DNA of 64,000 nucleotides from an uncultured Alphaproteobacteria bacterium (GCA_958267355.1 OY279575.1:540335-604334); one strand, 5' to 3'; numbered from the stretch's first letter, positions 4,283-56,520 are shown. Made by a program: numbers and translations. The notes: generated by a model not told the origin, from the sequence alone.

Positions 4283-4380
4283 TTTCTGTGTCCTTGCGTT
4301 TCTGTGTCTGTGTGTCTTTGTCCCTGTGTTTCTGTGTCTGTGCGTCTTTGTCCCTAGCTTGTCCTTTCGCTTGTCCTTGT
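4283..4380. repeat. about 30-bp tandem repeat (2-3 copies, tgtgtttctgtgtctgtgYgtctttgtccc) in the divergent intergenic region
   Basis: Direct reading; lies between the minus-strand DUF1285 gene and plus-strand moxR. Confidence 0.8.
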
Positions 4381-4402
4381 GCTGGCATGATTTCTGTTTC
4401 TG

Positions 4403-5560
4403 ATGACTGCTTCTGCTTCCCCTCCTGATCCGTCTCTCTTGCTGGAAGACCCGCCCGAAGTTGCGCCTACGCTCAACGATGGAGCAGACACTCTAGCAGG
4501 TGAGGCAACGAGTCAGGCAACGAACCAAGACCCAGTTGCAAACGGCGTTGATATGACTCCGTCTTCGGACAAGTTCAACAGCATTGTTGCTCAGCTAAAA
4601 GCTGTACGCGCAGAAATCGGCAAGGTCATCTACGGACAAGAACAAGTCGTAGAACAAACCCTAACCGCTATTCTGGCGGGAGGCCATGCACTGCTTGTTG
4701 GCTATCCGGGGCTTGCCAAGACGCGTCTAGTAGAAACTTTAGCAAACACTTTGGGTTTATCTGAACGGCGAATTCAATGCACACCTGATTTAATGCCGGC
4801 TGACATTCTAGGCAGTGAAATACTAGACCAGGATGACTCGGGCAAACGTTCTTTCCGTTTCTTGGAAGGCCCTGTTTTTACACAGCTGCTTATGGCAGAC
4901 GAGATTAATCGGGCGAGTCCGCGCACGCAATCGGCTTTGTTGCAGGCAATGCAAGAACACCGCGTAACCGTGGCAGGACAAACCCGCCCCTTGCCGACTC
5001 CCTTTCACACGCTTGCGACTCAGAATCCGCTTGAACATGAAGGAACCTATCCCTTGCCTGAAGCCCAGCTAGACAGGTTTCTGTTGCAAGTAGATGTGCC
5101 GTATCCTGCTTTAGATGCCGAGCGCGAAGTCTTGCTACGGACAACGGGGGAAGAAATCCCTGAAGCGGCACAGGTGTTATCAAGTGGCGCACTGTTGGAA
5201 ATCCAAGCCTTGGTGCGGGCAATGCCAATCGGAGAAGAAGTTTTAGCGGCAATCTTGCGCTTGATCCGTGCGGCAAGACCTGCTGAAGAAGGCAATGCAG
5301 AAAACGCCAGCCATGCAGCGGCAATCGCCGAAATCACAGCGGAAATTGCTTGGGGTCCGGGTCCGCGAGCGGGGCAAGCTTTAGTCACGGCTTCTAAGGC
5401 TCGGGCTTTACTTAACGGGCGTTCTGCTCCGGGCATTCAGGACATAGCGGTCTTGGCGGTTCCTGTTTTGAGTCACCGTATGGCATTGCAGTTCCGTGCG
5501 CGTACTGAAGGCGTATCGTTAGCCGAGCGCATTCAAACCCTAGCGGAGTTGACTCTCTAA
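4403..5560 (+). CDS. MoxR-family AAA+ ATPase
   Basis: Walker A GYPGLAKT and MoxR/AAA_3-like core (LLVGYPGLAKTRLVETLANTLGL...FRFLEGPVF...ADEINRASPRTQSALLQAMQE). True start may be the internal ATG near 4550. Confidence 0.88.
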   Translation: MTASASPPDPSLLLEDPPEVAPTLNDGADTLAGEATSQATNQDPVANGVDMTPSSDKFNSIVAQLKAVRAEIGKVIYGQEQVVEQTLTAILAGGHALLVGYPGLAKTRLVETLANTLGLSERRIQCTPDLMPADILGSEILDQDDSGKRSFRFLEGPVFTQLLMADEINRASPRTQSALLQAMQEHRVTVAGQTRPLPTPFHTLATQNPLEHEGTYPLPEAQLDRFLLQVDVPYPALDAEREVLLRTTGEEIPEAAQVLSSGALLEIQALVRAMPIGEEVLAAILRLIRAARPAEEGNAENASHAAAIAEITAEIAWGPGPRAGQALVTASKARALLNGRSAPGIQDIAVLAVPVLSHRMALQFRARTEGVSLAERIQTLAELTL

Positions 5561-5563
5561 GCT

Positions 5564-6871
5564 GTGGCTCTGTTCTCCAAAAGTGCGGCGGATAAGTCTT
5601 CTTCGTGGAAGTTTAACGCGGCTACTCTCAAACGGGCACTGCGGGCTTCGGCGCAGAGGGAAGACTCAATTCACCGTCTTCTAATCGACGCGCAAACCTT
5701 GGCGGGTGGATTTCCGCCACTTAACTTGCATATTGCTGACCGTGCGAATGCTACGCTTGGCAGGCACGGCAGGCGGCGTTTCGGACACGGAAGTGATTTC
5801 TGGCAGTTCCGCAACTATGAATGGGGTGACTCGGTTTCAACGATTGATTGGCGGCAATCGGCGCGGTTTGACAGCTTGCAGGTGCGCGAGCGTGAGTGGC
5901 AAGCGCAGCGGGCATTGTACATATGGAGCGATCCGTCTCCGTCGTGTGATTGGTCTTCGGCGCGTCATTTGCCGACTAAGCGGCATCGGGCGCAGGAAAT
6001 TCTGTTAGCCCTAGCAATCCTAGCTTTGCGCGGAGGCGAGTCGGTTGCGGTACTGCGTAACAGTGCGCGTCTAAAATGGGGTGGAGATCTTGCGGCATCT
6101 TTGGCGCAGGAACTTTTTCAGGAGTCGGCAGATTGGTCAGCCCGTAGAGCGGGTAGAGCGCAGGGTGAGTTACAAGGTGAGTCACAGGGTGCATCACAGG
6201 GCTCGCTACAAGGTGAGTCGCAACAGGAGTCGTCTCGTGGTGCGAGTCCATTGCAGGGAGTGCAGGGGGCTGACAATTTGGAGTCGGCGGCGACGACTCT
6301 GCCTGACTTGCGAATTCCCGATGCGGCGAGCCATGTCATTTTGGCGGGAGATTTCTTAGACCCACCCGAGCCGCTTGTTCCCTACTTAAAAGCTGTATCA
6401 GCTCGTGGAGCTACAGGCACACTTGTGCAGGTGCTAGACCCTGCTGAATGGAATCTGCCGTGGCGTGGCGGAGCCATACTAGATGGAACCGAAGGCGAAA
6501 GCCCATGGAAAGTCCGCCGCTTAGAAGAAATTGCTTCTGCTTACGAAAAACGCCTTGCTGACAGTACTGATAGGCTTCGTGCGATTGCTCGTGGTTCGGG
6601 CTGGGGTTATTTGGCGCACAACACGGCGGATTCGTCTGCCAAGGCACTTTTAGCCTTGCATATTCGGCTTAACCAGCGGGCGGGGCAGGGAGCTACCCAG
6701 GGCTCAGGCGGCTCAGGAAGCTCTGAGAAGAGCCCTGAAGCCGATTCGCCGATGAATCCCACTCACACCACCGCGCCACCAGAAAGAGCCACCAGCGTGG
6801 CTCCTGTGGCTTCTCAGGCAAGCCAACGGACAAGCCCACCCAGTGTGGCTTCATCTACTGGCGCGAGATAG
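5564..6871 (+). CDS. DUF58 domain protein with low-complexity insertions
   Basis: DUF58 hallmark FRNYEWGDSVSTIDWRQSARFD. Contains an in-frame QGE(L/S)QG repeat and a Ser/Pro/Thr-rich C-terminal tail. Confidence 0.78.
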   Translation: MALFSKSAADKSSSWKFNAATLKRALRASAQREDSIHRLLIDAQTLAGGFPPLNLHIADRANATLGRHGRRRFGHGSDFWQFRNYEWGDSVSTIDWRQSARFDSLQVREREWQAQRALYIWSDPSPSCDWSSARHLPTKRHRAQEILLALAILALRGGESVAVLRNSARLKWGGDLAASLAQELFQESADWSARRAGRAQGELQGESQGASQGSLQGESQQESSRGASPLQGVQGADNLESAATTLPDLRIPDAASHVILAGDFLDPPEPLVPYLKAVSARGATGTLVQVLDPAEWNLPWRGGAILDGTEGESPWKVRRLEEIASAYEKRLADSTDRLRAIARGSGWGYLAHNTADSSAKALLALHIRLNQRAGQGATQGSGGSGSSEKSPEADSPMNPTHTTAPPERATSVAPVASQASQRTSPPSVASSTGAR

Positions 6872-6886
6872 GCGATAGCCTTAGCT

Positions 6887-9952: not shown

Positions 9953-10441
9953 CACCCCTTGCGGGGCGGCGTCAATGCCAGCCCTTGTATTCCCCACCAA
10001 CTGTTAAGCCCCATAGTTTTAGTAACGGGTTAATTGAGCCAATACCCCTTTGCGGGGGGAGCGTGAGATTAGGGGGATTAACTGGCTCCCATTTTTGAGA
10101 CGAAGCCCTATAAAGGCTTAACCCACCAGTAAGACGAAGACGGGAGAAATAGCGGCTTGCCCTGCAGGGGGCGAAGCCCCCGCAGGGTTTGCGCGATTGA
10201 GCGCAAACCGCGGGAGATTAACCTTAATGGAACTGCCCACGCCGTAGCTCGTCCGAAGGTACCGCGAAAACGGAGTTTTCGCGGTACGCGCACGGCGAGA
10301 TGCGGCAAATAGCCCGCGCAAGCGGGCGGATTAAATGTTGCGAGAAAGCCCAACCCTAACCCCTTCTTTTTCGGATTAGGAATAAGGGTAATTAGAAGAC
10401 GGGCGAGATGCGGCAACTAGCCTGTATAGGTGCTTTGCGAT
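9953..10441. repeat. mosaic of dispersed repeat elements (left flank of island)
   Basis: Segments recur at 15250-15460 in direct orientation (e.g. ccccttgcggggggagcgtgagattagggggattaactggctccc) and at 14868-14940 in inverted orientation (tttgagacgaagccctataaaggcttaacccaccagtaagacgaagacggg). Confidence 0.8.
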
Positions 10442-11365
10442 CTATCTATCGCGGTTTCTTTTGTGGGCAAGAATGTTCAGCTTTTCTCGGTAGATTGCAA
10501 CAGAGTGATCTTTAAGAAACTTTTTTATCGTTTTTCCTTTTATAAAGATTGCAAGACGCCTTTCCCACGAAACCTTGTAGGTTAACTCTACTTCATCATA
10601 TCGGTTTGGCTTGCAGCTGGTTAAAAATCTTTCGTCTCCGACATGGAAGTAATCTTCAAAGTGGCCGAGATATTTCACAAACTTTCCGACAACAGGAACC
10701 AGCCCTAAGCAAAATTTTATTTTCTGCATCGTCTCCTTGCCAGGAGGTAACATCGTCACGCAATCAATTGCATTGACAACTCTGTAAATCGGCGTCTTGA
10801 TGGCGTACGACCAAGCTTCGTCTCCCACGCGTGGAGCTCCAAAGGTATAGCAAGCGGCAACGCCGCCTTGATGGTTTAATCTTTTTGCGGCGATCGTGGC
10901 TAAAGCTCCGCCTATGCCGTGTCCTGTTATCAATAGGGGCTTGTGGGCAAATGGCTCTTTGTTCAGGCTCGTTTGAATTGCGCTGGCAATTTGTTCGTAG
11001 GCTTCTTTAAAGCCAGCATGCACGCCGCCATTGGTTTCGCAGGAAACTTTGCGAGCGTTTGCTTCTGTTTTTATATCTTTGAAGCGTTTGGCTTTGTGTC
11101 CTTTGAATGCGAGTATTAGTAAGGTGTTGTTTGAAACGAGCAGGGCTTCGGTTCCGTTGGTATCGTATTTTTGTTCTACGGATAGTCCGATCTTTTCGAT
11201 TTCGGCATCTACTTCGTCAAAAGGCATGTAGGCAAGCTCGGACAGGTGCGCCATTAGCCAAGCGATGCGGTCGCTATATCCTTGCCGATAGGTTGGGAGC
11301 TGGTTGCTTTGGATATAATCCACCAGCAGGGCTTTTTTATCTTCGCTACTTGAAGGCTTGCTCAT
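10442..11365 (-). CDS. class-3 (fungal-type) lipase family protein
   Basis: Nucleophile-elbow pentapeptide GHGIG (in ITGHGIGGALA), Lipase_3-like context, AT-rich codon usage. Start at ATG 11365 (MSKPSSSEDKK). Confidence 0.75.
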   Translation of the reverse strand: MSKPSSSEDKKALLVDYIQSNQLPTYRQGYSDRIAWLMAHLSELAYMPFDEVDAEIEKIGLSVEQKYDTNGTEALLVSNNTLLILAFKGHKAKRFKDIKTEANARKVSCETNGGVHAGFKEAYEQIASAIQTSLNKEPFAHKPLLITGHGIGGALATIAAKRLNHQGGVAACYTFGAPRVGDEAWSYAIKTPIYRVVNAIDCVTMLPPGKETMQKIKFCLGLVPVVGKFVKYLGHFEDYFHVGDERFLTSCKPNRYDEVELTYKVSWERRLAIFIKGKTIKKFLKDHSVAIYREKLNILAHKRNRDR

Positions 11366-11461
11366 GGTTCTGACTTCCTTGAGACTTGTTCCGTGCGGAG
11401 TGCATTCTACCACAGCGTGAAGGCGTGGCAGTTGCAGGGGCGAAACGTGTCGGCTGTTCTT

Positions 11462-14260
11462 CTACCTGCGGGTTTTGAAGGGGATATAAAGCCCACCTGC
11501 TACGCCATGGGCGGTTTTGCCTCGCTCAATGGAGCCACAGCTAGAGCTTGCGTAGCAGACTTTGCCTCCTGCGAAGTGGGCGGCATAGCCCGACAGGGTG
11601 AAACGGGTGCCTTGAGCCGTGGAGAAGCCTAAAGCCGCCTGTACACCCCGCTCGGTGCCTGTGAGCGAGCGTAAAAGCGAGCCTGTGCCATGAACCGAAG
11701 CCTGTGTTTGCCAGGCGGTCAGGCTGACTTGCGACACGGGGCGTAGTGTGGCGGTGAAGCGCAGGTTTTCGCTACGGGCGAAGGAAAAGCCTTGGCTTCC
11801 CTGCGAGCCGAAGAAGCCATCGGAAGAAAAGCGTGTGGCGGCGACTTGCCAGCGGATTCCTGCGTGATGACCTGCAATAGCGGCTCCGCTTTCGCCTGTC
11901 TTCTCGGAGACCAAGCCGAGCCGTGTTTTGTCCTGCTTTGTGCCAGTGAGCGGCAGAAAAGCCCGCGCCGAAGGCGGAGTCGGCGCATACGCCACCTGTC
12001 CCTGCGGATTGTAGCCAAAGAAGCGGCTTTCGCCTTCGGGTGCAATTGCCAACTTGCCGTTGCTCTGGGCGGGTAGGGAGAGTCCGCCGAACTGCCGCCC
12101 ATAGAAAGCACTCAAAAAGCGAGTTGCGACTCCGCTTGCCCCCGCAGGAGCTGACCGAGTCGCCTTAGCCACTTCTTTTGCGGTTTCGTCTGCGGCACAC
12201 CACAAATCAAATCGCCCACGGCCTGTGTCTTTGTCTAGCCCGACGGCTCCGATATCCACGGAGCATTTATCAAAGATTGCCATAGCATCGCTGGCGGTGG
12301 CGGAAGCGGGCAGGTGTTCCCAGATCATGGTAAAGGCAGAAATGGCACCGCTAGAAGACGAGAAAGAAGTGCCGCCATGAAATTCGCTATTGTCTTTCGC
12401 GTTCATTAGCTTGTAGCGGTAGGGAAAGCCCACGCACCATTTTTCTACGCCTTCACAGCCGTTTGCCCTGTATCTTCCTCTATGGTCTTCTGTGAGTCCG
12501 TAGATGAATCGCACCCGCTCGCTTGTGTCGGCGATATACTTTTGGTTACGCATACCGCCTTGCATATAGGTATCGTCTTGGTCGGGAGAGTCTAGGTTAC
12601 TATTTCCTGTGCCTACGAAGATATAGGGGCCAGCGGGTTGGTTGGTGTTGGTGTTAAAAATATCTCCGAGCTGAATTCCGTGCTTTGAGAAGATGCGGGC
12701 AGTGGCAATGGAGACAACGCCATCGGTGGGTAACGCATTATAGAGTGGCGGTATGTTGTAGGTTGAAAAATTGCCGACTCTATACCGCCCACTGAGTCCG
12801 TCGTTTGCGTCTTTTGGCAGGAGTCGTTTTGCTAGGTTGGTGACTTGATATCCGTGGGTGGTTTTTGTCGCGGGGTTTGGAATGGGACTGTAATAGAAGT
12901 TTTGCCGAGAGATATCTTCGTGATCATGGAAGCTCACATTCAATCCGCCGTTATCCATAATGAAGATACCGCTACGCTTGGTGCGCTGTGCCTTTGTAAG
13001 CCCGTGGTCGCGGAAGACTTGAGCCAGACAGCTTTCTTCATTGCCGTTTAGGTTTTCGCCGATTTGGCAGGTAACGGTTTTGTATCCTTCGGTTCTTTCT
13101 GCGGCACACCAGAGGTCAAACCGCCCGCGGCCTGTGCTTTCGTCTAATCCTGTTGTGCCGAGATCTACGGCACAGCTATCAAAAATTGACATTGCATCGC
13201 TGGCGGTGGCGGAAGCGGGCAGGTGTTCCCAAATCATCGTAAAGGCGGTAAGGGCTCCGCTTGAGGTGGAGATAGAAGAGCCACCAAAAGTCCTTCCCTT
13301 GACCTTGTACTCATCAGGAAAGCCCACGCACCATTTTTCTACGCCCTTGCATCCGTTGGTTCTGGATCGTGCTGTTTGTGCTTGGTTGAGTCCATAGATG
13401 AAGCGCACCCTGTCGCTTCGCATGGCGACGAGTTCTTGATTGCGTATTCCGACTCCTGAGCGTGTGTAGCCGTTATCTTGGTCAGGAGTCATAACACTGC
13501 CATTATTTCCTGTCGGAGCAAAAATGTAAGGCCCCATAGCTTGTTTTGTGACGCTGTCAAAAACATCGGCGACTCCGATACCGCTTCGTTGGAAAAGCAA
13601 ACCATAGGCAATGGCAACTGCACCATTCGTGGGCAGGTTATTGTAAACCACTCGGAACTGGGCTGAAGATGGCGTAGAAGAAGTTATGTAATGCCCCTTG
13701 AAGCCTTTTGTGGCTGGGCTACGACTATCTTTAGGAAGCAACGCATCGGCAACTGTGGTGACTTGGTGTGCGTGAAGATTTGAAGCTGGATTGCTAACAA
13801 TTTGATCGCTGGTTTGAACATCCGTTTTAACACCAAGGAGCGTTTCCGTGTATGTATTTTGAGTGCCTTGACTTGGGTTTCCGCCATTGTCAACGAGGAA
13901 AATATTGTCGCGCTTGGTGCGTGTGAGTTTTCGCCCTTCGCGGAAAGTGCGCGTGAGGCAACTTTCTGTGCCTGTGTCTAAGTCTTGTCCGTTTTGACAA
14001 GCCAGGACTTGCGCCTGTGTAAGTGCCACAGGCGTGCCCACACCCGTGCCAGGCGTAGGAGGCGTAACCACAGGCGGGTCTTGTGGGTCAGGGTCAGGGT
14101 CTGGGTCTGGGTCAGGCTGGGTAACAGGCGCACCGCCACCACCACCGCCGCCACCGCCACCTCCACCACAGGCAACAAGCGGCACAGTAAGTAGCAAAGA
14201 AAGCAACAAGACAACAAAAACACAGAAACCCCGCACGGAAACAAGCCCCGCCCCACTCAT
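11462..14260 (-). CDS. lipoprotein with two tandem S8 (subtilase)-like domains and autotransporter-like C-terminal region
   Basis: Lipobox LVAC followed by a G12 tract and PDPDPDPDPDPQDP linker. Two ~275-aa tandem repeats each carry D (F[L/I][VM]DNGG), H (HAHQV / HGYQV) and S (GSSISTSSG / GTSFSSSSG) subtilase-like motifs. C-terminal ~250 aa show an alternating beta-strand pattern like an autotransporter beta domain. Confidence 0.6.
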   Translation of the reverse strand: MSGAGLVSVRGFCVFVVLLLSLLLTVPLVACGGGGGGGGGGGGAPVTQPDPDPDPDPDPQDPPVVTPPTPGTGVGTPVALTQAQVLACQNGQDLDTGTESCLTRTFREGRKLTRTKRDNIFLVDNGGNPSQGTQNTYTETLLGVKTDVQTSDQIVSNPASNLHAHQVTTVADALLPKDSRSPATKGFKGHYITSSTPSSAQFRVVYNNLPTNGAVAIAYGLLFQRSGIGVADVFDSVTKQAMGPYIFAPTGNNGSVMTPDQDNGYTRSGVGIRNQELVAMRSDRVRFIYGLNQAQTARSRTNGCKGVEKWCVGFPDEYKVKGRTFGGSSISTSSGALTAFTMIWEHLPASATASDAMSIFDSCAVDLGTTGLDESTGRGRFDLWCAAERTEGYKTVTCQIGENLNGNEESCLAQVFRDHGLTKAQRTKRSGIFIMDNGGLNVSFHDHEDISRQNFYYSPIPNPATKTTHGYQVTNLAKRLLPKDANDGLSGRYRVGNFSTYNIPPLYNALPTDGVVSIATARIFSKHGIQLGDIFNTNTNQPAGPYIFVGTGNSNLDSPDQDDTYMQGGMRNQKYIADTSERVRFIYGLTEDHRGRYRANGCEGVEKWCVGFPYRYKLMNAKDNSEFHGGTSFSSSSGAISAFTMIWEHLPASATASDAMAIFDKCSVDIGAVGLDKDTGRGRFDLWCAADETAKEVAKATRSAPAGASGVATRFLSAFYGRQFGGLSLPAQSNGKLAIAPEGESRFFGYNPQGQVAYAPTPPSARAFLPLTGTKQDKTRLGLVSEKTGESGAAIAGHHAGIRWQVAATRFSSDGFFGSQGSQGFSFARSENLRFTATLRPVSQVSLTAWQTQASVHGTGSLLRSLTGTERGVQAALGFSTAQGTRFTLSGYAAHFAGGKVCYASSSCGSIERGKTAHGVAGGLYIPFKTRR

Positions 14261-14481
14261 CCAGCGATTGCCTTCTAGTTGCACGGATTATCCTCCACCA
14301 CCAACCCAATAATAGCCCATCCTACACCCCCACAGAACAAGCCTGTAATAATCGCAAGCAAACCCAAAGTGGGTTATATTAAGTCCCAGCGGAGGCATTA
14401 GCCAACGTTAATGCGGTGACGCACACCGCCACTTCGTGGTGGCGCACGTCGCCGCTCAGCGGTGGCTGACGCCACCGCTTC

Positions 14482-14567
14482 GCGGTTGTGGCGGAATGGT
14501 AGACGCGCAGCGTTGAGGGCGCTGTGGAGGCAACTCCGTGGAGGTTCAAGTCCTCTCAACCGCACCA
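14482..14567 (+). tRNA. tRNA-Leu (anticodon GAG)
   Basis: Acceptor GCGGTTG/CAACCGC, anticodon loop tTGAGgg, long variable arm, T-arm GGTTCAAGTCC, encoded CCA. Confidence 0.85.
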
Positions 14568-15706
14568 TTGTTACGGCGGCTTGCGCCGCCTTTGGGCGCA
14601 TCTGGCTTGCTATCCGCGTCCTACGGACGCGATACGCAAGACCACCTGCGCCTGTGGGCAGTTCCACCACCCTTGTTCTTCACGGGCGTTTCACGCCCTA
14701 CTTAAACAAACGGGCTTCACAAACTTCATACTTACCGTTCGGCCCGCTGGCTAAAACGCCAGCGGGCACTTTGGCGTGTTGTTACATCCGCTCGCGTTCG
14801 TGCCCTACGGGCACTCGGTGGCTAAAGCCGCCACTTCGTGGTGGGTCTTCATCTCTAAAGTCGGGAAAGGGCAAGCCGCTATTTCCCCGTCTTCGTCTTA
14901 CTGGTGGGTTAAGCCTTTATAGGGCTTCATCTCAAAGTTAATCTGTGCCTTCCCCATCTTTACAGTACCCTGATTTCTAAGCCGCAGAAAAATGGGTAAG
15001 TGTTGGGCTTTCTCGCAACATTTTTTACGCACGCTTGCGCGGGCTTTGGGCGCATCTGGCTTGCTATCCGCGTCCTACGGACGCGATACGCAAGACCACC
15101 TGCGCCTGTGGGCAGTTCCACCACCCTTGTTCTTCACGGGCGTTTCACGCCCTACTTAACTGACGGGCTTCACAAGCTTCACACATACCGTATGTCCCGC
15201 TGGCTAAAACGCCAGCGGGACACTTGGCAGTGCGGCATTCGTGCCAGCCCTTGTTTCCCCCACCAGCTGTTAAGCCCCATAGTTTTAGTGACGGGTTAAT
15301 TGAGCCGATACCCCTTGCGGGGGGAGCGTGAGATTAGGGGGATTAACTGGCTCCCGTTATGGAGATGAAGACGGGAGAAGTAGCGGCTTGCCCCTTTGCG
15401 GGGGGAGCGTGAGATTAGTGGGATTAACTGGCTCCCGTTATGGAGATGAAGACCCACCGAGCACCCGTAGGGTGCGAACGCGAGCGTAGCGGAGTGAAAC
15501 GAGCGGAGCGAAGCGGACACCGCGTAGCGGCGGCTTTAGCCACCGCGAAGCATCTTGCGCGTAGCGCAAGGCTTCGCGGCACTAGGCGGCGTAAGCCGCC
15601 GTAACTTAAACAGTGAGAGAAAGTCCGCCCCTAACCCCTTTTTCTGCGGCTCAGAAATCAGGGTAGTAAGAAGACAGGAGGATAACGGCTTACTCGCGGG
15701 TTAGAT
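14568..15706. repeat. repeat-rich non-coding region (right flank of island), direct and inverted repeat mosaic
   Basis: A ~117-bp perfect direct repeat at 14589-14705 and 15044-15160, extending with mismatches to about 200 bp. Inverted copies of 9953-10441 elements. Palindromic pairs at 14795-14860 versus 15455-15500. Six-frame ORFs here are not protein-like. Confidence 0.8.
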
Positions 15707-16613: not shown

Positions 16614-17930
16614 CTAAGAAATCCGCCGCGAACCCTCGCGCACAAGCTTTTCCAACGCCTCACGCAAGCCAGAAGCAGGAAAACCCTTCAAAATCATATC
16701 CGCTTCAGCCAATAAGCCACTCGCCTCCCCACGAACCATATCACCCACCCCATGCCGCACCAGCAAAGCTTGAGCTAGCTTTAAATTGTCCTTCATAGAC
16801 GCTGTATTGCTCCGTGAAGGCGATTCGTTTGATTCAGGGTGTTGTGGTGCATCTTCGCCACTTTGCTCGCCCACAGCGGCTTTCTGGAAGGCTTTGTGAG
16901 TGGCTTTCTGGATGGCTTTATGGGGGGCTTTGTGAGTGGCTTTCTGGTGGGCTTCGTGAGTGGCTTTATGGGTAGCTTTGTGAGCGGCTTTCTGACCTTC
17001 GCCTGATTGCTCGCCTTCATCGCTTCGCTCACCCCCGCTGGCTCGCCCAATCGCCACAGAATCCGCCAACACAGGGCTATTTCCCTGATTGCTCTCCTCC
17101 ACCAGAACCCGATGCCAAAAAGCCCGCTCAGAATCATCTCCCGCCTGCCACGCAAGCCACACAGGCAAAGTCATCCGCCCATCACGCAAGTCATCGCCCG
17201 CCGCCTTGCCCGTAACCGCACTTCCGCCTTCGTAATCAAGCAAATCATCCACCATCTGGAAGGCAAGCCCAATCGCTTGCCCAAATTCCGCCATCGCCGC
17301 CCGCTTGCTACCCACAGGCGGCTCAGCCAAGTTTTCAGGCTCCACCAAACAAGCCCCCGCTTCACAAGCCGCCGAGAATAAAGCCGCAGTCTTACCCTCC
17401 ATCACGGCAATGATTTCAGCCCGCGTCAGGTCGGTGCGGCGGGTTGTCCGTAGCCCCAGCATCTCACCTTCAGACACAGTAATCGCCGCCCGCGCCAAAA
17501 CCTGCAACGCCGACGGACAGCCAACTTCAACAATCAAACCAAATGCCCGTCCAAGCAAAAAATCACCCGTCAAAACACTCGCCTTGTTGCCCCAGACAAC
17601 ATTGGCGGCAGGCTGTCCGCGGCGGAGCGCACCCAGATCCACCACATCATCGTGCAGTAAAGTCGCAGAGTGCATAAGCTCCACAGCCGCCGCCAGCTTG
17701 TGCGCCTTAGGTAGCTCGTCAGGCGGAGTCCCACACAAGTGCGCCGCCGCACAAGTCAGCAACGGACGTAACCGCTTGCCCTCCGCGTCTAGCAGGTGTC
17801 CCGCAATTTCAGACACCAGCGGCACATGCGAAGCTACCTGCTGGCGCAAAATGTCAGCCACGGCTTCAGTATCAGGGGCAAGCCGCTCGGCAAGTCCTGC
17901 GGTGTTGCGGATTGTTTGCGGGTTCTGCAT
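16614..17930 (-). CDS. ispB: polyprenyl diphosphate synthase (IspB-like) with in-frame repeat insertion
   Basis: First aspartate-rich motif LLHDDVVD, second DDxxD motif FQMVDDLLD, and the substrate-binding Lys-Arg-Leu-Arg motif EGKRLRP. About 90-aa low-complexity insertion (HKATHKATHEAHQKATHKAPHK...) encoded by tandem ~30-bp repeats at 16880-17000. Confidence 0.82.
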   Translation of the reverse strand: MQNPQTIRNTAGLAERLAPDTEAVADILRQQVASHVPLVSEIAGHLLDAEGKRLRPLLTCAAAHLCGTPPDELPKAHKLAAAVELMHSATLLHDDVVDLGALRRGQPAANVVWGNKASVLTGDFLLGRAFGLIVEVGCPSALQVLARAAITVSEGEMLGLRTTRRTDLTRAEIIAVMEGKTAALFSAACEAGACLVEPENLAEPPVGSKRAAMAEFGQAIGLAFQMVDDLLDYEGGSAVTGKAAGDDLRDGRMTLPVWLAWQAGDDSERAFWHRVLVEESNQGNSPVLADSVAIGRASGGERSDEGEQSGEGQKAAHKATHKATHEAHQKATHKAPHKAIQKATHKAFQKAAVGEQSGEDAPQHPESNESPSRSNTASMKDNLKLAQALLVRHGVGDMVRGEASGLLAEADMILKGFPASGLREALEKLVREGSRRIS

Positions 17931-18092
17931 AAGATATAGGGCAGGAGATATAGGGCAGGGCTGGCAGTGTGATTCGGTACGATTCAGTGCGACTCAGTGT
18001 GGCAATCGCTCGCTTCAATCCGTGGTAAGACTAGCGGAAATAGACCACACACAGACTAGCCTAAACCCACAAGAACTAGGGATAAACAAACC

Positions 18093-34626: not shown

Positions 34627-34662
34627 AGGTATCCTTGGGGCTTAATCTTTGGAAATTAATCC

Positions 34663-38018: not shown

Positions 38019-38019
38019 G

Positions 38020-38125
38020 GGCTACTGCTTAGGGGGTACTGCTTAGGGCTATTGCTTAGGGGCTATTCTATACTCCGTCTTGTTTGCCCGATTCACCGCT
38101 GGATTCACCGCTGGATTCACCGATG
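38020..38125. repeat. two adjacent minisatellites: (CTACTGCTTAGGGG)x4 then (GGATTCACCGCT)x3
   Basis: Direct reading of the fhs-bioY intergenic region. Confidence 0.85.
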
Positions 38126-38220
38126 GGCTTGCATTCTAGCTCTAGCCGTTTAAGGTATTCTTCTTGTTGCTCTAACCAGCCAACGCGATATCCAACACAA
38201 CAAAGGGAAGGGTTCAGACA

Positions 38221-40559: not shown

Positions 40560-40690
40560 ACAGACGAACCAACAAGCAAGGGTTAATCCACAGGCAAAAG
40601 CGAAACCACGACTCAAAGCGAAAGCTAATTCATAAGCAAAAGCGAATCCACAAGCAAGAGTTAATTCACAAACAAATAAAAAGAAGGAAA
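40560..40690. repeat. degenerate ~24-bp tandem repeats (aagcRaRRgttaatYcacaRRcaaaagcgaa)
   Basis: Direct reading of the mttB-GFA intergenic region. Confidence 0.7.
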
Positions 40691-42654: not shown

Positions 42655-42753
42655 AGAGTGCCTAGCATATAGCCCACAGGACACAATTGCGCCAATTGGC
42701 GCACAATTGCGTCAATTGGCGGGGCTTTAGTCCTTCAAGGCTCACAGCTTCGG

Positions 42754-43632: not shown

Positions 43633-43695
43633 ATCCTAGACAAAGCACACTTTAAACAAAATACACTTTAGACAAAGCACACTTTAGACAAAACA

Positions 43696-44727
43696 CTAGC
43701 GAACAGCGCGTGTCTGCGCCACAGCATTAGCAAGATTAAGTGCGGCAATAAAGCTTTCAGGACGCGCCGTGCCTTTCCCCGCCAAAGAAAACGCCGTGCC
43801 ATGGTCAGGAGATGTACGGACAATCGGTAGCCCCAAACTGATTTGACAGCCACTCCAAAAGTCTAAAGTTTTTAACGGGATTAAGGCTTGGTCGTGATAC
43901 ATCGCCAAAACCGCATCGTAGCTACGGCGGGCTTCTTCGTGAAATAGCGTATCGGCGGGGAGCGGACCCACAGCAGGAATTCCCTGTTCGTTCATAGCGG
44001 CAACGGCAGGGGCAATGACTTCTTGTTCTTCTCCGCCAAAGCTACCGCCTTCCCCCGCATGCGGATTCAAAGCCGCAATCGCAATTTTTGGACTAGCAAC
44101 ACCAAAGTCTTGTTGTAATCCTGCATGCAAAATCTTTGCCGCCGAAATAATCGTATCGGCAGCTAAGGCTTCACCAACTTTTGACAAAGGCAGATGCACC
44201 GTTACAGGCGCAACTTTCAATTCCTGCGAGACAAACAGCATTAAGGCTTCAGCGTCTAGGCGGGCTTCAAGCCAGTTGGTGTGCCCTGGGTAGGGAAAGC
44301 CAATTTCTAACAAGACACGTTTTTGAATTGGCAAGGTGACAAGTCCGCGCGTGGCGTTTCTGCGGGTTAGGTCTAAAGCTGTTTCTAAGGAATCAATTAC
44401 CGATTGTGCTGTCTGCACAGACGCTTCGCCTAAAGTGACACTAGCTTCTAGCGGACAATCCACCACCAGAAGGCTCGGGTCTTCGTCATCAGCAAGCAGC
44501 AGATCAGGCTGGTGCGTACTATCTTCAGCAGCAAGAACTTTAAGCGACAAGTCAATCTGCAAAAGGTGTGCGCGGGCGCGCAGGGTTTCAGCGTCTCCGA
44601 CAACAACATAGCGCGGACAAAGCCCACGATTGGCAAGGCGGGCTTGCCAAACATGCACCGCAAGGTCAGGACCAATTCCCGCAGGCTCGCCTAAGCTAAC
44701 CGCAAGCGGACGCAAATCAGCAGGCAC
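43696..44727 (-). CDS. pdxA: 4-hydroxythreonine-4-phosphate dehydrogenase
   Basis: PdxA family (SLGEPAGIGPDL...GHTNWL...NPHAGEGG). Confidence 0.9.
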   Translation of the reverse strand: MPADLRPLAVSLGEPAGIGPDLAVHVWQARLANRGLCPRYVVVGDAETLRARAHLLQIDLSLKVLAAEDSTHQPDLLLADDEDPSLLVVDCPLEASVTLGEASVQTAQSVIDSLETALDLTRRNATRGLVTLPIQKRVLLEIGFPYPGHTNWLEARLDAEALMLFVSQELKVAPVTVHLPLSKVGEALAADTIISAAKILHAGLQQDFGVASPKIAIAALNPHAGEGGSFGGEEQEVIAPAVAAMNEQGIPAVGPLPADTLFHEEARRSYDAVLAMYHDQALIPLKTLDFWSGCQISLGLPIVRTSPDHGTAFSLAGKGTARPESFIAALNLANAVAQTRAVR

Positions 44728-49487: not shown

Positions 49488-49539
49488 AAAAATTCTCGCA
49501 GGCGTTTGCTTGAGCCTTCGGGGCGGGCGGGGAGTGGTG

Positions 49540-49680
49540 CATTTGCGTAGTTTAAAGTATGATTGGACTATAGCCCACTGGAGCGCATTGAAATCCACTG
49601 GGAAGCCCACTGGTAAGCCTACTGGGAAACCCACAGGGAAGCGCCCACTGGTAAGCTCACTGGGAGACACACAGAAACCG
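49540..49680. repeat. 12-bp tandem repeat (CCCACTGGTAAGC-like, ~6 copies) in the lptG/pepA divergent region
   Basis: Direct reading. Confidence 0.85.
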
Positions 49681-49714
49681 TAGCAATAAATCCAAGATTC
49701 GGAGGGAAACCCGT

Positions 49715-51325
49715 ATGCCAGCAGTAGCCTCAGCACGCAGTGCCTTGAAAATCACCTTTCACGGGCGCGAAGCCTTGCCTCCGCATGGAGCCGCCATCGC
49801 TGTGCCGCTTGGGGCGGGCGGGAGCTTTCCTGCCGTCACGCGGCGGATTGACGCAAAGCTGGGGGGCTTATTGAAAGACGCGGCTACGCGGGCAGAATGC
49901 ACGGGAGCGGCAGGTGAAGTTCTAGAAGTTTTTACGCCGCAGGAAAGCGGATTGTCGCGGGTCTTTTTGTATGGAACGACTCCGCAGCAGGATTTGCCTG
50001 AAGGTAAGGCGAGTCGTGCTGGACGGAATGAGAAGAAAACTTTTCCTGAACAGCCTGTGTCAAGAATTCCTGCCTTGAGTGCGACTCTGGCGGCTGAAAA
50101 GGCAGGAGCCATTTTGTATGCCAAAGCGGTTGCGGCAAAAGTGCAGGGCAAGGAGTTGTGGCTTGTTTCTGACTCAAGCACGCGGGCTTTGTCTGTGGCT
50201 GAAGGAGCGTTACTCCGTTCGTGGCGTTTTACCACCCACCACACACGCGGAGCCATGCACGGCGAAGCAAAGGTGCAGGCTTTGCGGGTTGTGACTACGG
50301 CGGGCAGGGGGCTTGAGCGTTCGTTTGTTGCTTACAAGGCGCGGGCACGCGGAAATGAAATTGCTAAGGCTTTGGTTTCGGAGTCTCCCAATTGGTTGTA
50401 TCCCGAATCTTTTGTGGCGGTGGCGAAGCGTGATTTGCCGCCTTTGGGGGTTAAGGTTTCGTCCTTGGGTGAAACGGAAATGCGCCGTCTAAATATGGGA
50501 GCATTGCTAGGCGTGGCGCAGGGGTCTGTGCGCAAGCCGCGTCTGCTGGTGATGGAGTACAAGGGTGCACCTGCGAGTGAAAAGCCTGTGCTCTTGGTGG
50601 GCAAGGGAGTCTGCTTTGACACGGGGGGAATTTCGCTCAAGCCCCCTAAGGGTATGGAAGATATGAAATACGATATGGGTGGAGCCGCCGCTGTCACAGG
50701 AGCCATAGCGGCAATCGCAGGACGCAAAGCACGGGCGAATGTTGTGGCGTTAGCGGGCTTGGTGGAAAATATGCCTGATGGTAATGCGCAACGTCCGAGC
50801 GATATTGTTTATTCGGCGTCGGGACAGACAATTGAAGTTCTGAACACCGATGCTGAAGGAAGACTCGTCCTTGCGGATGCGCTTTGGTATGCGCAGAAGT
50901 ATTACAAGCCGCGAGCGATTGTGGATCTAGCGACTTTGACAGGAGCTATGGTCGTGGCTTTGGGTAGTACGCGGGCTGGGTGCTTTGCCAATGATGACAG
51001 GCTTGCTAGGGCTTTGCTGGCGGCGGGCGAGCGGGTTGCTGAGCCTTTGTGGCGGTTTCCGTTGGAGCCCGATTACGACAAGCTGTTGGATTCTCCAGCG
51101 GCTGATATGCAGAATATCAGCCCGGGCTATGGAGCGGGTTCTATTACGGCGGCACAGTTCTTACAGCGATTTGTGGATCGGCGTGTGCCTTGGGCGCATT
51201 TAGACATTGCTGGCGTTGCTTGGCGGCACGGTGGCAGCTTAGAAGCCGCCAAGGGAGCAACGGGCTATGGTGTGCGGCTTTTGAATGAATATGTTTTGAG
51301 TACAGAACGCGGTAGCCGCCGCTAG
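49715..51325 (+). CDS. pepA: leucyl aminopeptidase (M17)
   Basis: NTDAEGRLVLADAL and other M17 active-site motifs. Confidence 0.9.
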   Translation: MPAVASARSALKITFHGREALPPHGAAIAVPLGAGGSFPAVTRRIDAKLGGLLKDAATRAECTGAAGEVLEVFTPQESGLSRVFLYGTTPQQDLPEGKASRAGRNEKKTFPEQPVSRIPALSATLAAEKAGAILYAKAVAAKVQGKELWLVSDSSTRALSVAEGALLRSWRFTTHHTRGAMHGEAKVQALRVVTTAGRGLERSFVAYKARARGNEIAKALVSESPNWLYPESFVAVAKRDLPPLGVKVSSLGETEMRRLNMGALLGVAQGSVRKPRLLVMEYKGAPASEKPVLLVGKGVCFDTGGISLKPPKGMEDMKYDMGGAAAVTGAIAAIAGRKARANVVALAGLVENMPDGNAQRPSDIVYSASGQTIEVLNTDAEGRLVLADALWYAQKYYKPRAIVDLATLTGAMVVALGSTRAGCFANDDRLARALLAAGERVAEPLWRFPLEPDYDKLLDSPAADMQNISPGYGAGSITAAQFLQRFVDRRVPWAHLDIAGVAWRHGGSLEAAKGATGYGVRLLNEYVLSTERGSRR

Positions 51326-51354
51326 GGTTTCGCTGGGGTTTTGCTAGAGTTTTT

Positions 51355-51834
51355 ATGGCTAAGGCAGATACAGCAGGAGCAGAGCTAGGAGTCTATCTTT
51401 GCTCGGCGGGGCGTGAATTTGCGTCTTTGCGCAGTTTGCTGACCCGAGCTTTAGAGTCGGGGGCACGGGCGGTGGTGCGAGTGCGTGAAGAAGAAAGCGA
51501 AGCTTTAGACAAGCGGCTCTGGCACGGCTCGGACTCGGGTATTCTTTTGCCCCACGGAGATGCAACAGCTCCACAGGCTGACCGTCAGCCGATTGTTCTA
51601 ATCACAGAAGGGCAAGCCGAGACCAAGCCTAGCAACGGGGCGCGTTTGTGGTTTCAATATCTTGCTCCGCGTGTGGCTTTGCCTGAAGTGAATCGTTTTG
51701 ACCGTATGTTTGTCATTGCTGTGGAAGGCTCGTTGGGTGCAGTCCAGTTTGACGAATGGCGGGCGAGCGGTTATGTAGTGCGTCTCTGGCGGCAGGATGA
51801 GTCTAACCACTGGCGTGAAGAAAAACCTGAATAG
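51355..51834 (+). CDS. holC: DNA polymerase III chi subunit
   Basis: HolC-like pattern (VYLCSAG...GARAVVRV...EALDKRLW...LLPHGDA) and the conserved position downstream of pepA. Confidence 0.7.
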   Translation: MAKADTAGAELGVYLCSAGREFASLRSLLTRALESGARAVVRVREEESEALDKRLWHGSDSGILLPHGDATAPQADRQPIVLITEGQAETKPSNGARLWFQYLAPRVALPEVNRFDRMFVIAVEGSLGAVQFDEWRASGYVVRLWRQDESNHWREEKPE

Positions 51835-51864
51835 AAGAAACACCTAAATAGAAGGAAAACAACA

Positions 51865-52287
51865 ATGGCGATTGAGCGCACTTTATCCATTTTGAAGCCC
51901 GATGCATGCCTGCGCAATCTAACGGGGCGGATTATGACTGTGATTGAAGACTCGGGCTTGCGGGTTGTGGCGGGCAAACGTCTGCAGCTCACCCAAGAGC
52001 GGGCAGAAGCTTTTTATGCGGTTCATAAAGACCGCCCATTTTTTGGTGATTTGGTTTCCTATATGATTTCGGGTCCTGTTGAAGTCCGTGTTTTAGAAGG
52101 CGAAGGCGCAGTTGCTAAGTACCGTGAGATTATGGGTGCAACCAATCCTGCGGAAGCGGCTGACGGGACAATCCGCAAGCTGTTTGCAGAAAATGTAGAG
52201 CGCAATTCAGTCCATGGCTCCGATAGCCAAGAAAACGCGGCGAAAGAAATCGCCTTCTTCTTCACCCCCGAAGAATTCACAGGCTGA
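51865..52287 (+). CDS. ndk: nucleoside-diphosphate kinase
   Basis: [11 protein letters not shown]...NSVHGSDS with the catalytic His. Confidence 0.95.
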
Positions 52288-52581
52288 AGTTATCCACACG
52301 AACAAATTGGCAATCATTAAAATTCACGAACAATTTACGGCAAAAAATTAAAACTTTTTCACAGATTAAAATTCTTCCACAGAATAGATTTTGCCTTTCC
52401 ACAAGAGAGTAGGGCAGGTCATACCAGCCCAGTGGTTAAGACTCTTACAGTGCTTGCCAAGCATTCTTGAAATGCTTTGTAAGCAGTTCGCATTCCACCC
52501 AATGTTTGCGGATCTGCATGGAGCTACCGCGTCCCTTGCCTCCACCAATAGGCATAGGCATGGACGTACGGGGGGAGGCAG

Positions 52582-53877: not shown

Positions 53878-53889
53878 GCGCACCTGTGC

Positions 53890-54012: not shown

Positions 54013-54029
54013 GGTGATTCCTCCCGTGG

Positions 54030-54190
54030 TATCGCTTGTGGTTTTAGCCTTGGTCTTGGCTGTGATACTGCCCGTGGTGTTAGCCGTGTTATTGCTCGTG
54101 GCGTTAGCTGTGTTATTGCCCGTAGCGTTAGCTGTGCTACTGCCCGTAGCGTTAGCCGTGGTCTTGGCTGTAGCCCTGCGCAGGTTGGGG
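54030..54190. repeat. 21-bp tandem repeat (about 6 copies)
   Basis: gttagcYgtgYtaYtgcYcgtRgc units, read directly from the sequence. Confidence 0.85.
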
Positions 54191-54226
54191 TTAAGGATTC
54201 CAGTACTTGCGCCAATTGGCAAGACT

Positions 54227-56413
54227 TCAAGATGGCGACTCCTTTTGGTAAAGCCTACAAAGCTCTGCGGCTTCTTTTTGTCCGATTTTGTGGCGGATGG
54301 TAATTTCCGCAAGGCGACGGGCGAGCGGTAGCAAATCACCATGCTCGGGAATTGACACCAAGCGATATTCAGGATCTCCGTGCTGTCGGGTGCCGATTAA
54401 ATCGCCACTGCCACGCAGACGCAGGTCTTGCTCGGCAAGGACAAAGCCATTGTGCTCCTTGCGGATCAGTGCAAGCCGTTCTTTAGAGTGAATCCCAAGG
54501 GGGGCGCGATAGAGTAGCAAACACGAACTTGTTTGACCGCTCCGCCCAATCCGCCCGCGCAACTGGTGGAGCTGTGCCAAGCCAAACCGTTCAGCGTTTT
54601 CTACCACCATAATTTCAGCAGTCGGTACATCTACACCGACTTCTACGACAGTTGTTGCAACCAAAAGCGGGCGCGTACCTTCAGCAAAGGCAGAAATTGC
54701 ATCGCTTTTTTCTTGTGGCTTCATCTTGCCGTGAATGGAACCAACTTGTTGCGGAAAACACTCCGCTAAATATTTTGCTCTGTCTTCTACAGAAGTTAAG
54801 CCTTTGTGTTCTTCTTGCGAGTCTGTTTCCGCCGAGTCGTCTGCCAACAAGCGCGGACAAACCCAAAAGACTCTCGCCCCCTGCTTCAAACGCGGAGCCA
54901 AACGCGCAATCACTTCATCAAAGCGTGTCGCAGGTAGCACTTTCGTAGAAACAGGCGGACGACCATGCGGTAATTCGTCTAGAGTAGAAACCGATAGGTC
55001 TCCGTAGCTTGTCATTAACAAAGTACGCGGAATCGGCGTAGCACTCATCGCTAACAAATCTGCCTTATGCTTCTTACCTGCCTTCGCCGCCAAGGCAGTG
55101 CGTTGGCGGACTCCAAAGCGATGCTGTTCATCAATAACCGCAAAGCGCAAATCTTTAAACACCACCGAGTCGGCATAGAGCGCATGGGTGCCAATGGCAA
55201 GCTGGGCTGTACCATCAGCAAGACTCGTGTGAATCTGCTTCTGTGCCTTGGCAGTCATACCGCCAATCAATAAAACTATCTTCACGCCCAACTGAGTCGC
55301 CAGTGGTTGTAGACGCTCATAGTGCTGGCGGGCAAGAACTTCAGTCGGAGCCATTAAGGCAACTTGTCCGCCTGTTTCTACCACCGCCAAAGCTGCCAAA
55401 AACGCCACCGCTGTCTTGCCACTGCCAACTTCTCCATGGAGCAAACGCATCATACGGTCAGACGAAGCTAAGTCCTTAACAATTTCACCAAGCGCGCGAG
55501 TCTGCGCCCGAGTCAAAGTAAAGGGCAGAGCTTTTTGTCCTTGGCGTAAAAGCGGCGAAGAAGTTTTGGCGTTACTTTGCCCTCCTGTGCGGTTATGACG
55601 GCGGGCTTGCGACAAAACAAGCTGGTGGGCAAACAGCTCGTCCAAAGCCAAAACCCGCCGCTCAGGAGAGTCCGCCGTCAAAGAAGCAAGAGCGGCTTGT
55701 CCGTCGCTAGGCCTATGCAAGCCACGCAACGCCGTAAAGCGACTCGGAAGCCCGCCCAAGATCTCAGCCGCCCGTAGGTCTTCGTTACCACCTTCCGACT
55801 GCAAATGCGTAGCCCATTTGCCATAGGGAGCTTTCGCCGAAGCCTTCGCGTCTTCCTGCGGCAAGAACAACAAAGCTTGGGCAATTGACTCACGGACAAT
55901 GTGCTGCGATAGCTCCTTCACCAACGGATAGACTGGCTCAGGAACCCGCAAAGCAGCAACAGCCGTTTCAGGCTCAACCCGTTTCGGATGGGCAATCCGT
56001 GGCACAACAGCATTGCGCTCCACCTTGCCCGCAATCGCCAAACGCACACGCGGACGAAACGTTTTACGAAGCCAAGCCGCTTGTCCGCGAAAATACAAAA
56101 TCTGCAGGTGCTGGCCTGAATCATCCTGACAGTGAATCACCCACGGCTGACGCGGATGACGCGGCTGAACCACCGACAAGACCTGCACAACAAAGACTCC
56201 ATCTGTGCCGTGTGGCGTGTCAGCAAGCGAAGAAGCCTGACTACGGTCAACAAAGTTAAGCGGCAAGACAAACAGTAAATCCGCAAGCCGCGTGCCGTGT
56301 GCCAAATTGCTTAAGGCTTCACCGCGTTGTGGCCCCACGCCCTTGAGACTCGTCAAGGGAAGCCACAAAGCGTCGGGCAGGATTGTTTGCCGCGGAGTTT
56401 TTTCTTTCGCCAT
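54227..56413 (-). CDS. recG: ATP-dependent DNA helicase RecG
   Basis: Helicase motifs (GEVGSGKT, DEQHRFGV, QLHQLRGRIGRSG) and a wedge-domain N-terminus. Confidence 0.92.
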   Translation of the reverse strand: MAKEKTPRQTILPDALWLPLTSLKGVGPQRGEALSNLAHGTRLADLLFVLPLNFVDRSQASSLADTPHGTDGVFVVQVLSVVQPRHPRQPWVIHCQDDSGQHLQILYFRGQAAWLRKTFRPRVRLAIAGKVERNAVVPRIAHPKRVEPETAVAALRVPEPVYPLVKELSQHIVRESIAQALLFLPQEDAKASAKAPYGKWATHLQSEGGNEDLRAAEILGGLPSRFTALRGLHRPSDGQAALASLTADSPERRVLALDELFAHQLVLSQARRHNRTGGQSNAKTSSPLLRQGQKALPFTLTRAQTRALGEIVKDLASSDRMMRLLHGEVGSGKTAVAFLAALAVVETGGQVALMAPTEVLARQHYERLQPLATQLGVKIVLLIGGMTAKAQKQIHTSLADGTAQLAIGTHALYADSVVFKDLRFAVIDEQHRFGVRQRTALAAKAGKKHKADLLAMSATPIPRTLLMTSYGDLSVSTLDELPHGRPPVSTKVLPATRFDEVIARLAPRLKQGARVFWVCPRLLADDSAETDSQEEHKGLTSVEDRAKYLAECFPQQVGSIHGKMKPQEKSDAISAFAEGTRPLLVATTVVEVGVDVPTAEIMVVENAERFGLAQLHQLRGRIGRSGQTSSCLLLYRAPLGIHSKERLALIRKEHNGFVLAEQDLRLRGSGDLIGTRQHGDPEYRLVSIPEHGDLLPLARRLAEITIRHKIGQKEAAELCRLYQKESPS

Positions 56414-56424
56414 AAACAGACTTT

Positions 56425-56520
56425 ACCAACAGAACAAAACAGACTGTAAAGATAAAACAGATTGTGCAGATTGTAAGGATAAAGCAGACTGTAAAGACAA
56501 AGCAGATTGTAAAACAAGTC
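56425..56520. repeat. 12-bp tandem repeat (CAGAYTGTAAAG-like, ~6 copies) in the recG/sdhE-mfd divergent region
   Basis: Direct reading. Confidence 0.85.

Follow-up and report, generated by a model that had tools for sequence, protein, structure and literature searches.

What are the short tandem repeats that crowd the spacers of a 64,000-nucleotide stretch from an uncultured alphaproteobacterium (GCA_958267355.1 OY279575.1:540335-604334; hereafter the window), and do they regulate the genes beside them? An initial annotation, made from the sequence alone, had listed six intergenic arrays, described them as concentrated in divergent promoter regions and proposed that they act either as iteron-like binding sites for regulators or as phase-variable promoter spacers. 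All six were recovered at or near these places by Tandem Repeats Finder (TRF), together with arrays that the annotation had not mentioned, namely about ten further intergenic ones and a set of in-frame ones in housekeeping genes. We consider it likely that the arrays are lineage-specific variable-number tandem repeats (VNTRs; short minisatellites), i.e. filler made by slippage rather than sites read by a regulator.

The arrays exceed chance by a wide margin. At a TRF score of at least 50, the 7.07 kb of intergenic DNA hold 17 arrays and the 56.9 kb of coding DNA hold nine, against 0.02 and 0.1, respectively, in dinucleotide-preserving shuffles. Repeats cover 16.6% of intergenic bases, 1.7% of coding bases and 1.9-2.6% of the window as a whole. 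One TRF run gave 4.2 arrays per 10 kb for the window versus 0.61 per 10 kb for 80 other alphaproteobacterial loci (1.33 Mb), and the 9.6 kb upstream of the window are as densely populated (e.g. 14 bp x12.7). Individual arrays measure 30-330 bp, with periods of 7-36 bp and unit matches of 62-100%; they are imperfect, and their head-to-tail units above chance expectation place them in the bacterial VNTR or minisatellite class. Many are essentially three-letter in composition: array 1 lacks A on the + strand over 75 nt, and array 3, the array at 43610 and array 6 consist of A to about 50%. The periods given by the annotation were right for array 1 (30 bp), array 2 (14, then 12 bp) and array 4 (12 bp) and need correction for array 3 (18 instead of about 24 bp), array 5 (24 instead of 21 bp) and array 6 (18 bp with a 9-bp sub-period instead of 12 bp). 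Its suggestion that a 12-bp periodicity matches one helical turn does not carry over to the full set, given that periods anywhere between 10 and 32 bp occur in intergenic DNA and that 12 bp, although the most common value, applies to only 4-5 of about 20 arrays.

Arrays of this class should differ in copy number between close relatives, and a comparison between strains had been recommended from the start. The window is a piece of a 1.86-Mb HiFi-assembled contig (ENA ERZ19433661, hifiasm.ptg000096c); a search of the GTDB species genomes found no close relative (best PepA identity 46-57%), and relatives were obtained by protein searches from the same ENA metagenome. One of the loci retrieved, L081, is identical to window positions 39715-61325. 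Near-identical strains are represented by L084/L085, L088, L093 and L094, and sister species by L086 and L090 (RecG 79%, BatA 86% identity to the window) and by L087 and L091 (RecG 75%, BatA 81%); L089 is a more distant metagenome-assembled genome from NCBI (Fhs 81%). In alignments with four contigs from near-identical strains, 55.7 kb in total, we counted 1.77% substitutions and 20 insertions or deletions (indels) of at least 6 bp. Fifteen of these indels are at least 70% identical to an adjacent segment of equal length and four more are located inside arrays, so that 19 of the 20 represent gain or loss of repeats. Length differences of roughly one unit or more are seen in four of the six reported arrays (1, 2b, 3 and 5; Table 1), which bears out the expected length polymorphism. 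In the alignments of the moxR and lptG/pepA spacers, conserved unique flanks enclose a variable array, and whole-unit differences in copy number separate close strains, as is typical of VNTRs.

Coding arrays vary in the same way. Besides the differences entered in Table 1, a 431-amino-acid (aa) open reading frame (ORF) differs by +6 bp between strains. All coding indels are multiples of 3 bp except for one 25-bp call, which is probably a 1-bp offset of alignment or assembly, since the difference at that site is 24 bp in L093. Substitutions between strains amount to 2.33% in intergenic arrays, compared with 1.32% in coding DNA as well as in the rest of the intergenic DNA, so that the arrays show no more constraint than the sequence around them.

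Between species, the arrays turn over. L086 and L090 carry unrelated arrays in spacers orthologous to those of the window, and the spacers of L087 and L091 are minimal and nearly free of arrays. In the comparison with L087/L091, the lptG/pepA spacer measures 107 bp versus 227 bp in the window and the DUF1285/moxR spacer 160 bp versus 284 bp; the cox4/recG spacer of L087 is 61 bp long and free of arrays, compared with 214 bp in the window. Array 1 is absent in L091 and different in L090, and array 2b is missing from the corresponding spacer of L089. The spacer filled by array 3 has no counterpart in L089, where mttB and GFA abut. Array 4 is absent in L087, and the lptG/pepA spacer of L086 holds unrelated short arrays instead, with GGGGTTTCTGTG beside lptG and AGAGACACTC replacing array 4. 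At the site of array 6, the recG/sdhE spacer contains a 14-bp array in L086 and none in L087. L086 further has its own 21-bp in-frame array in recG and an unrelated array of ~210 bp in the pepA/holC spacer. Array density follows a gradient, from 4-6 per 10 kb in the window strains through 2.7-3.9 in L086/L090 to 1.5-2.2 in L087/L091.

What stays constant in these spacers are the promoter-like cores, and the arrays lie outside them. Invariant blocks of ~35 to 55 bp carry TTGAGA-N17-TATCAT or TTGCRT-N18-ACTATA, with arrays beginning beside them; the moxR core is invariant over the strains and two sister species. Given that arrays 1 and 4 start next to such cores, they are placed in inferred 5' leaders, those of moxR and pepA, respectively. 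Array 4 opens with CCCACTGG, which ends the conserved block, and its unit therefore derives from local sequence. Arrays 2 and 6 lie upstream of the next promoter, and array 6 is probably part of the recG leader; downstream of array 2b, a CTTGCAT box is common to the window and L089. Array 3 lies between cistrons, as do the arrays at 43610, 51321 and 51817. The two promoter-like forms may represent the clade's consensus for housekeeping promoters. A similar form also occurs near ~920 (GGACTATAT).

The concentration in divergent promoter regions that the initial annotation had described holds for arrays 1, 4 and 6 only: arrays 2 and 3 stand between co-directional genes on the + strand, and both neighbours of array 5 are on the - strand. 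Nor do arrays prefer divergent spacers in the window at large. Counting spacers of 25 bp or longer, four of eight divergent, 11 of 18 co-directional and none of three convergent ones contain an array; this makes 15 of the 26 spacers that hold a gene start, and about half of all gaps.

Table 1. Repeat arrays, promoter-like cores and one small gene of the window; length differences are given with the strain contig compared
Feature	Position	Strand	Unit x copies, or motif	Location and remarks	Length difference	Basis
Array 1	4281-4377		30 bp x2.5 (4281-4355), then 12 bp x2.6 (4348-4377)	moxR 5' leader (inferred), between promoter-like core and ATG at 4403	+31 bp (L093), -50 bp (L094)	TRF
moxR promoter-like core	4187-4215	+	TTGAGA-N17-TATCAT	upstream of moxR, outside array 1		motif scan, alignment
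Array 2a	38015-38065		14 bp x3.7 (TTAGGGGCTACTGC)	begins at fhs stop codon	+1 bp only (L088)	TRF
Array 2b	38090-38126		12 bp x3.1 (GATTCACCGCTG)		-12 bp, one unit (L088)	TRF
Array 3	40616-40676		18 bp x3.4; degenerate A/C-rich units back to ~40560	occupies mttB-GFA intercistronic spacer	+30 bp, as +12 and +18 (L088)	TRF
lptG/pepA invariant spacer core, 53 bp	49526-49578		TTGCGT-N18-ACTATA at 49543-49572			alignment
Array 4	49575-49665		12 bp x~6 (CCACTGGGAAGC); TRF 49595-49665, 12 bp x5.8	starts at 3' edge of conserved core; inferred pepA 5' leader	-2 bp only (L084)	TRF
Array 5	54030-54174		TRF 54059-54174, 24 bp x4.7	between recG stop (54227) and COX4-like ORF, all - strand	+23 bp (L084)	TRF
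Array 6	56425-56517		TRF 56440-56517, 18 bp x2.9, 9-bp sub-period, A-rich	between recG ATG (56413) and sdhE promoter-like core	unchanged (L084)	TRF
sdhE promoter-like core	56530-56559	+	TTGCAT-N18-ACTATA	upstream of sdhE; conserved		three-species comparison
RidA/Sua5 spacer complex	31883-32312		12-bp units at 31883-31931, then 10/20-bp GGGCTTATAG-type units	largest repeat complex	+12 bp (L088)	
ksgA-pdxA array	43610-43696		16/32 bp	fills whole intercistronic spacer	no change (L088)	TRF
ispB/glyQ arrays	17932-17999		14 bp x2 + 10 bp x3.5	divergent spacer, beside ispB start		TRF
tRNA-Leu(GAG) array	14413-14486		23 bp x3.2	immediately upstream of the tRNA gene		TRF
gmk/ksgA array	42682-42721		20 bp x2	spacer		TRF
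pepA-holC array	51321-51353		11 bp x3	fills spacer		TRF
holC-ndk array	51817-51860		17 bp x2.6	over holC stop and spacer		TRF
ndk array	52347-52383		18 bp x2.1	downstream of ndk		TRF
DUF1638 array	34642-34676		14 bp x2.5	spacer upstream of the gene	+13 bp (L088)	TRF
G/T-rich tract	1057-1200			degenerate		
Class II ribonucleotide reductase arrays	28103-28244	+	9/18 bp	in frame	-18 bp, 6 aa (L088)	TRF
mfd array 1	59382-59454	+	12/24 bp	in frame, between two helicase domains	-24 bp (L084)	TRF, Pfam
mfd array 2	60215-60319	+	15/30 bp	in frame		TRF
Polyprenyl synthase (IspB) array	16878-16994	-	12/24/36 bp	in frame, C-terminal extension		TRF
DUF58 array	6164-6223	+	12 bp x5	in frame	+24 bp (L094)	TRF
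HemF array	about 1475			in frame	+24 bp	
COX4-like ORF, 40 aa	53890-54012	-		preceded by GGGAGGAA ribosome-binding site		

These observations are consistent with a simple mutational account. An array would be born when a local segment of 7-36 bp is duplicated in tandem and would then grow or shrink by whole units, through slipped-strand mispairing in replication or unequal recombination between units. The process would act genome-wide, and arrays would persist at sites that tolerate additional DNA: in spacer segments that are not conserved (5' leaders, intercistronic gaps and stretches upstream of promoters) and, as in-frame units in multiples of 3 bp, within coding genes. We infer slippage as the mechanism, near-neutrality of the arrays and a rate of tandem duplication that is raised throughout the lineage.

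Could the arrays instead be kept because they are useful? As evolvable expression tuners of the contingency type, their unit changes would alter transcription, mRNA stability or translation, and their variability would be retained for that reason. Length polymorphism among co-occurring strains would suit this role, as would the position of arrays 1 and 4 in inferred transcribed leaders right after conserved -10 elements and the occurrence of arrays in spacers with a gene start (15 of 26, versus none of the three convergent ones). However, the neighbours are housekeeping genes (pepA, lptG, recG, sdhE, moxR, bioY and GFA) rather than genes for surface or host-interaction functions, no array alters a -35/-10 spacing, the arrays, with their imperfect units (66-96% matches), evolve more quickly than the spacer around them, and sister species manage without them. 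In-frame units also enter ribonucleotide reductase (RNR), Mfd, HemF and DUF58, which indicates a general mutational process. The contingency tracts of Neisseria and Haemophilus are perfect repeats of 1-7-nt units that lie between -35 and -10 or shift the frame of ORFs, in surface or restriction genes. Like these loci, the window has repeat tracts near promoters and gene starts that change length by slippage, yet its units are 7-32 bp long, imperfect, outside the core promoter and in frame when coding, with housekeeping genes as neighbours; a tract between -35 and -10, an ORF unit other than a multiple of 3 bp, or short perfect units were not found among them. On this pattern, selected tuning seems unlikely, and the phase-variable promoter spacers proposed by the initial annotation do not fit arrays of this size, imperfection and position. 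Its other proposal was an iteron-like role. Iterons are conserved units bound by a cognate Rep protein, located at an origin beside the rep gene. Tandem direct repeats of roughly 12-24 bp are common to plasmid or chromosomal iterons and to the window; repeats of 12-30 bp lie near promoters in some cases, and units of array 3 resemble DnaA boxes (TAATCCACA and GAATCCACA). Yet the unit is different at every locus, and a conserved unit, an origin, an adjacent rep gene or a gene for a cognate binding protein was not found for the window arrays, nor was a replication-initiator gene seen beside any of them. At up to one mismatch, the DnaA box TTATCCACA matches the window 10 times versus 8.4 expected, which is chance level, and only one match falls in array 3. 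Many arrays are intercistronic or in-frame coding. At orthologous sites of sister species the promoter-like cores are conserved but the array sequences are not, and turnover beside invariant cores is the opposite of what iterons predict. Binding sites for one or several regulators, or for DnaA, would therefore be a very unlikely interpretation of these sequences. Of the two features on which the initial annotation had staked its proposal, length polymorphism was found and a sequence relationship among the arrays was not.

Some of the arrays might alternatively share an ancestry, as copies or remnants of a family of short repeats that a mobile or recombinational process has dispersed, instead of having been born locally. 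This would concern the arrays with GGGCTTATAG-type units (1057-1200, 31978-32312 and 38015-38065) and the pepA/holC array of L086 (L086 locus 16942-17150), which has a similar 10/20-bp unit at another locus and on the opposite strand. The words GGGCTTA, TAGGGCT and ATAGGGC are enriched 6-16-fold in intergenic DNA and occur in 6-8 spacers, and the number of 7-mers common to at least six spacers is 18 versus a shuffle mean of 4.4, above all 300 shuffles. On the other hand, the top shared 7-mer (eight spacers) is reached in 16% of shuffles, the motif is missing from most arrays (1, 2b, 3, 4, 5, 6 and the one at 43610), and terminal inverted repeats, target duplications or hairpins were not seen. 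Between loci only scattered single 8-mers are shared, at chance level, and most of the sharing is internal to the complex at 31978-32312, where the GGGCTTATAG-type units sit within a duplication of ~209 bp. We regard a dispersed family as quite improbable. Finally, the arrays or their length differences could be artefacts of HiFi metagenome sequencing and assembly, and low-coverage haplotigs are indeed rich in 1-bp indels that break lptD, mttB and ksgA. The differences discussed here are whole units of 12-31 bp rather than homopolymer errors, and they keep the coding frame. Because contigs from several strains and species, each assembled independently, reproduce the imperfect arrays together with substitutions, the unit-sized differences are not artefacts, and an origin of the arrays in sequencing or assembly is scarcely credible.

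The reading of the arrays as slippage-made VNTRs has weak points of its own. Tuning of the flanking genes by the length of a 5' leader or spacer may occur, since arrays 1 and 4 lie in inferred leaders and vary between strains. The sharing of GGGCTWT-type 7-mers means that some arrays may have a common origin or a sequence preference beyond slippage alone. The lack of arrays in the three convergent spacers could hint at a link to gene starts, a number too small to carry weight. Moreover, every strain comparison comes from one metagenome assembly, and some differences of 1-2 bp may be assembly errors.

Structured RNA and coding potential were considered as further sources of the arrays. Seven arrays were folded and show little or no RNA structure (z from +0.83 to -2.06, with only the two weakest cases near -2), and Rfam at gathering thresholds reported two tRNA-Leu genes and nothing else in the whole window; covariance models gave no match of the arrays to REP/BIME-like elements, riboswitches or a small RNA class. 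G-quadruplex-driven instability of GGGCTT-type arrays was set aside, the window containing five such motifs versus 4.6 in shuffles. As a coding extension, array 5 is spanned by a 106-aa ORF that has no Pfam match and whose reading frame is disrupted in L084, where the length differs by 23 bp. N-terminal extensions of sdhE and lptG are not kept in sister species; the sdhE start is the GTG at 56674, retained in three species and giving a 95-aa product with an Sdh5 domain.

How do these arrays relate to tandem repeats known from other bacteria? In Mycobacterium tuberculosis, the mycobacterial interspersed repetitive units (MIRUs) form a related family with units of 40-100 bp at about 40 loci. MIRU-VNTRs share with the window the occurrence of variable repeats in the intercistronic gaps of operons (array 3 and those at 43610, 51321 and 51817), whereas the units of the window are shorter and unrelated between loci. 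In marine Beggiatoaceae, one heptamer, TAACTGA, recurs genome-wide in 169 sets, which suggests a common binding factor (PMC4679880). Both systems comprise many intergenic arrays, those of Beggiatoaceae being located just upstream of start codons; in contrast, every locus of the window has a unit of its own.

Closer parallels exist within the Alphaproteobacteria. Intergenic VNTRs of Wolbachia have been ascribed to slipped-strand mispairing (PMC3287509), and VNTR-105 and VNTR-141 resemble the arrays described here in being intergenic, size-polymorphic among strains that are nearly identical elsewhere and suitable as strain markers (PMC3287509). They are few in number, however, with periods of 105-141 bp and internal hairpins thought to trigger slippage (PMC3287509), while the lineage of the window has dozens of loci, short units and little or no predicted structure. 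In Ehrlichia ruminantium, tandem repeats actively expand and contract in noncoding regions (PMC10710844; see also Frutos et al. 2006, as cited there and in PMC3287509). As in the window, the setting is a reduced alphaproteobacterial genome, the many repeats are unrelated and mostly noncoding, whole units are gained or lost between strains, and slipped-strand mispairing is the attributed cause. TRF at default settings yields 201 rows in 1.516 Mb of E. ruminantium (6.3% of bases, mean period 139 bp) and 89 rows in 4.65 Mb of E. coli (0.38%) (PMC3287509). The window gives 31 rows at these settings, covering 1.93% of its bases, or 4.8 rows per 10 kb versus 1.3 in E. ruminantium. The two alphaproteobacteria also differ in that E. 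ruminantium combines its period of ~139 bp with long spacers and a coding density of ~64%, compared with 7-36 bp and ~89% in the window, whose organism does not belong to the Anaplasmataceae. In-frame insertions in essential enzymes, frequent in the window, are a further difference. The window thus represents a VNTR-rich reduced alphaproteobacterial genome of a second style, beside that of E. ruminantium.

For annotation, it follows that the arrays should not be labelled as regulatory sites or iterons. They also mislead gene callers into over-extension, as seen for sdhE (165 aa versus the conserved 95-aa form), for a 464-aa reading of LptG and for the spurious 106-aa ORF across array 5. For strain typing, they offer high-resolution markers in a clade of which several strains and species co-occur in one sample. 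Biologically, a genome that combines very many short-unit loci with a high coding density, and that accepts in-frame insertions in RNR, Mfd, HemF and RecG, can be used to ask what sets the birth and death rates of bacterial tandem duplications. One speculative and rather unlikely answer is a clade with a heritable, lineage-specific mutator bias to short tandem duplications (e.g. because a replication or repair function was lost or altered), in which VNTRs would enter most spacers and even essential enzymes, and some, located in 5' leaders and between divergent promoters, would serve as graded expression tuners that differ between coexisting strains.

Gene calls for window positions 1-61325 combine the existing annotation with Pfam. 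The Pfam barrel domain of class II RNR is recovered as two separate stretches, the polyprenyl synthase domain stops at residue 280 of 438, and the 940-aa ORF, too, has an in-frame array by TRF. The 40-aa COX4-like ORF scores 21.8 bits with PF07835, just below the Pfam cutoff of 22. In the strain haplotigs L084, L085, L088 and L093, many 1-bp indels split lptD, lptG, mttB, ksgA, batA and pepA; in these lower-coverage sequences, they are probably homopolymer assembly errors and not real pseudogenes.

Larger differences between strains and species were noted at a few sites. A block of ~5.3 kb at 9954-15678 is flanked by direct repeats of ~450 bp (9954-10403 and 15220-15678) and contains a Lipase_3 gene, the 940-aa ORF, which has no Pfam hit, and a second tRNA-Leu(GAG). 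The block is missing from strain L093 and from species L090 and L091, where tRNA-Leu(CAG) alone follows batA; it is probably an insertion or island beside a tRNA gene. Inside a gene-free stretch of 1.4 kb, positions 14568-15228 hold a duplicated segment of ~210 bp (454-bp spacing, 83-96% identity), and a 62-nt element with no Rfam match occurs three times, at 10046, 15311 and 15392. The NDUFA12/RNR spacer (26722-27130) cannot be aligned to L088 despite flanks of 98.4% identity, and Rfam detected no riboswitch upstream of this class II (B12-dependent) RNR gene. Between ndk and the 431-aa ORF (window 52286-52375), L084 has an additional ~1.04 kb, which includes two small ORFs (117 and 141 aa). 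A giant ORF runs from 61205 past the end of the window, with 10,316 aa here and 9,717 aa in the L084 strain; Calx-beta and intimin-like IAT_beta domains occur in the homologues from sister species, and this length-polymorphic protein is probably a surface adhesin.

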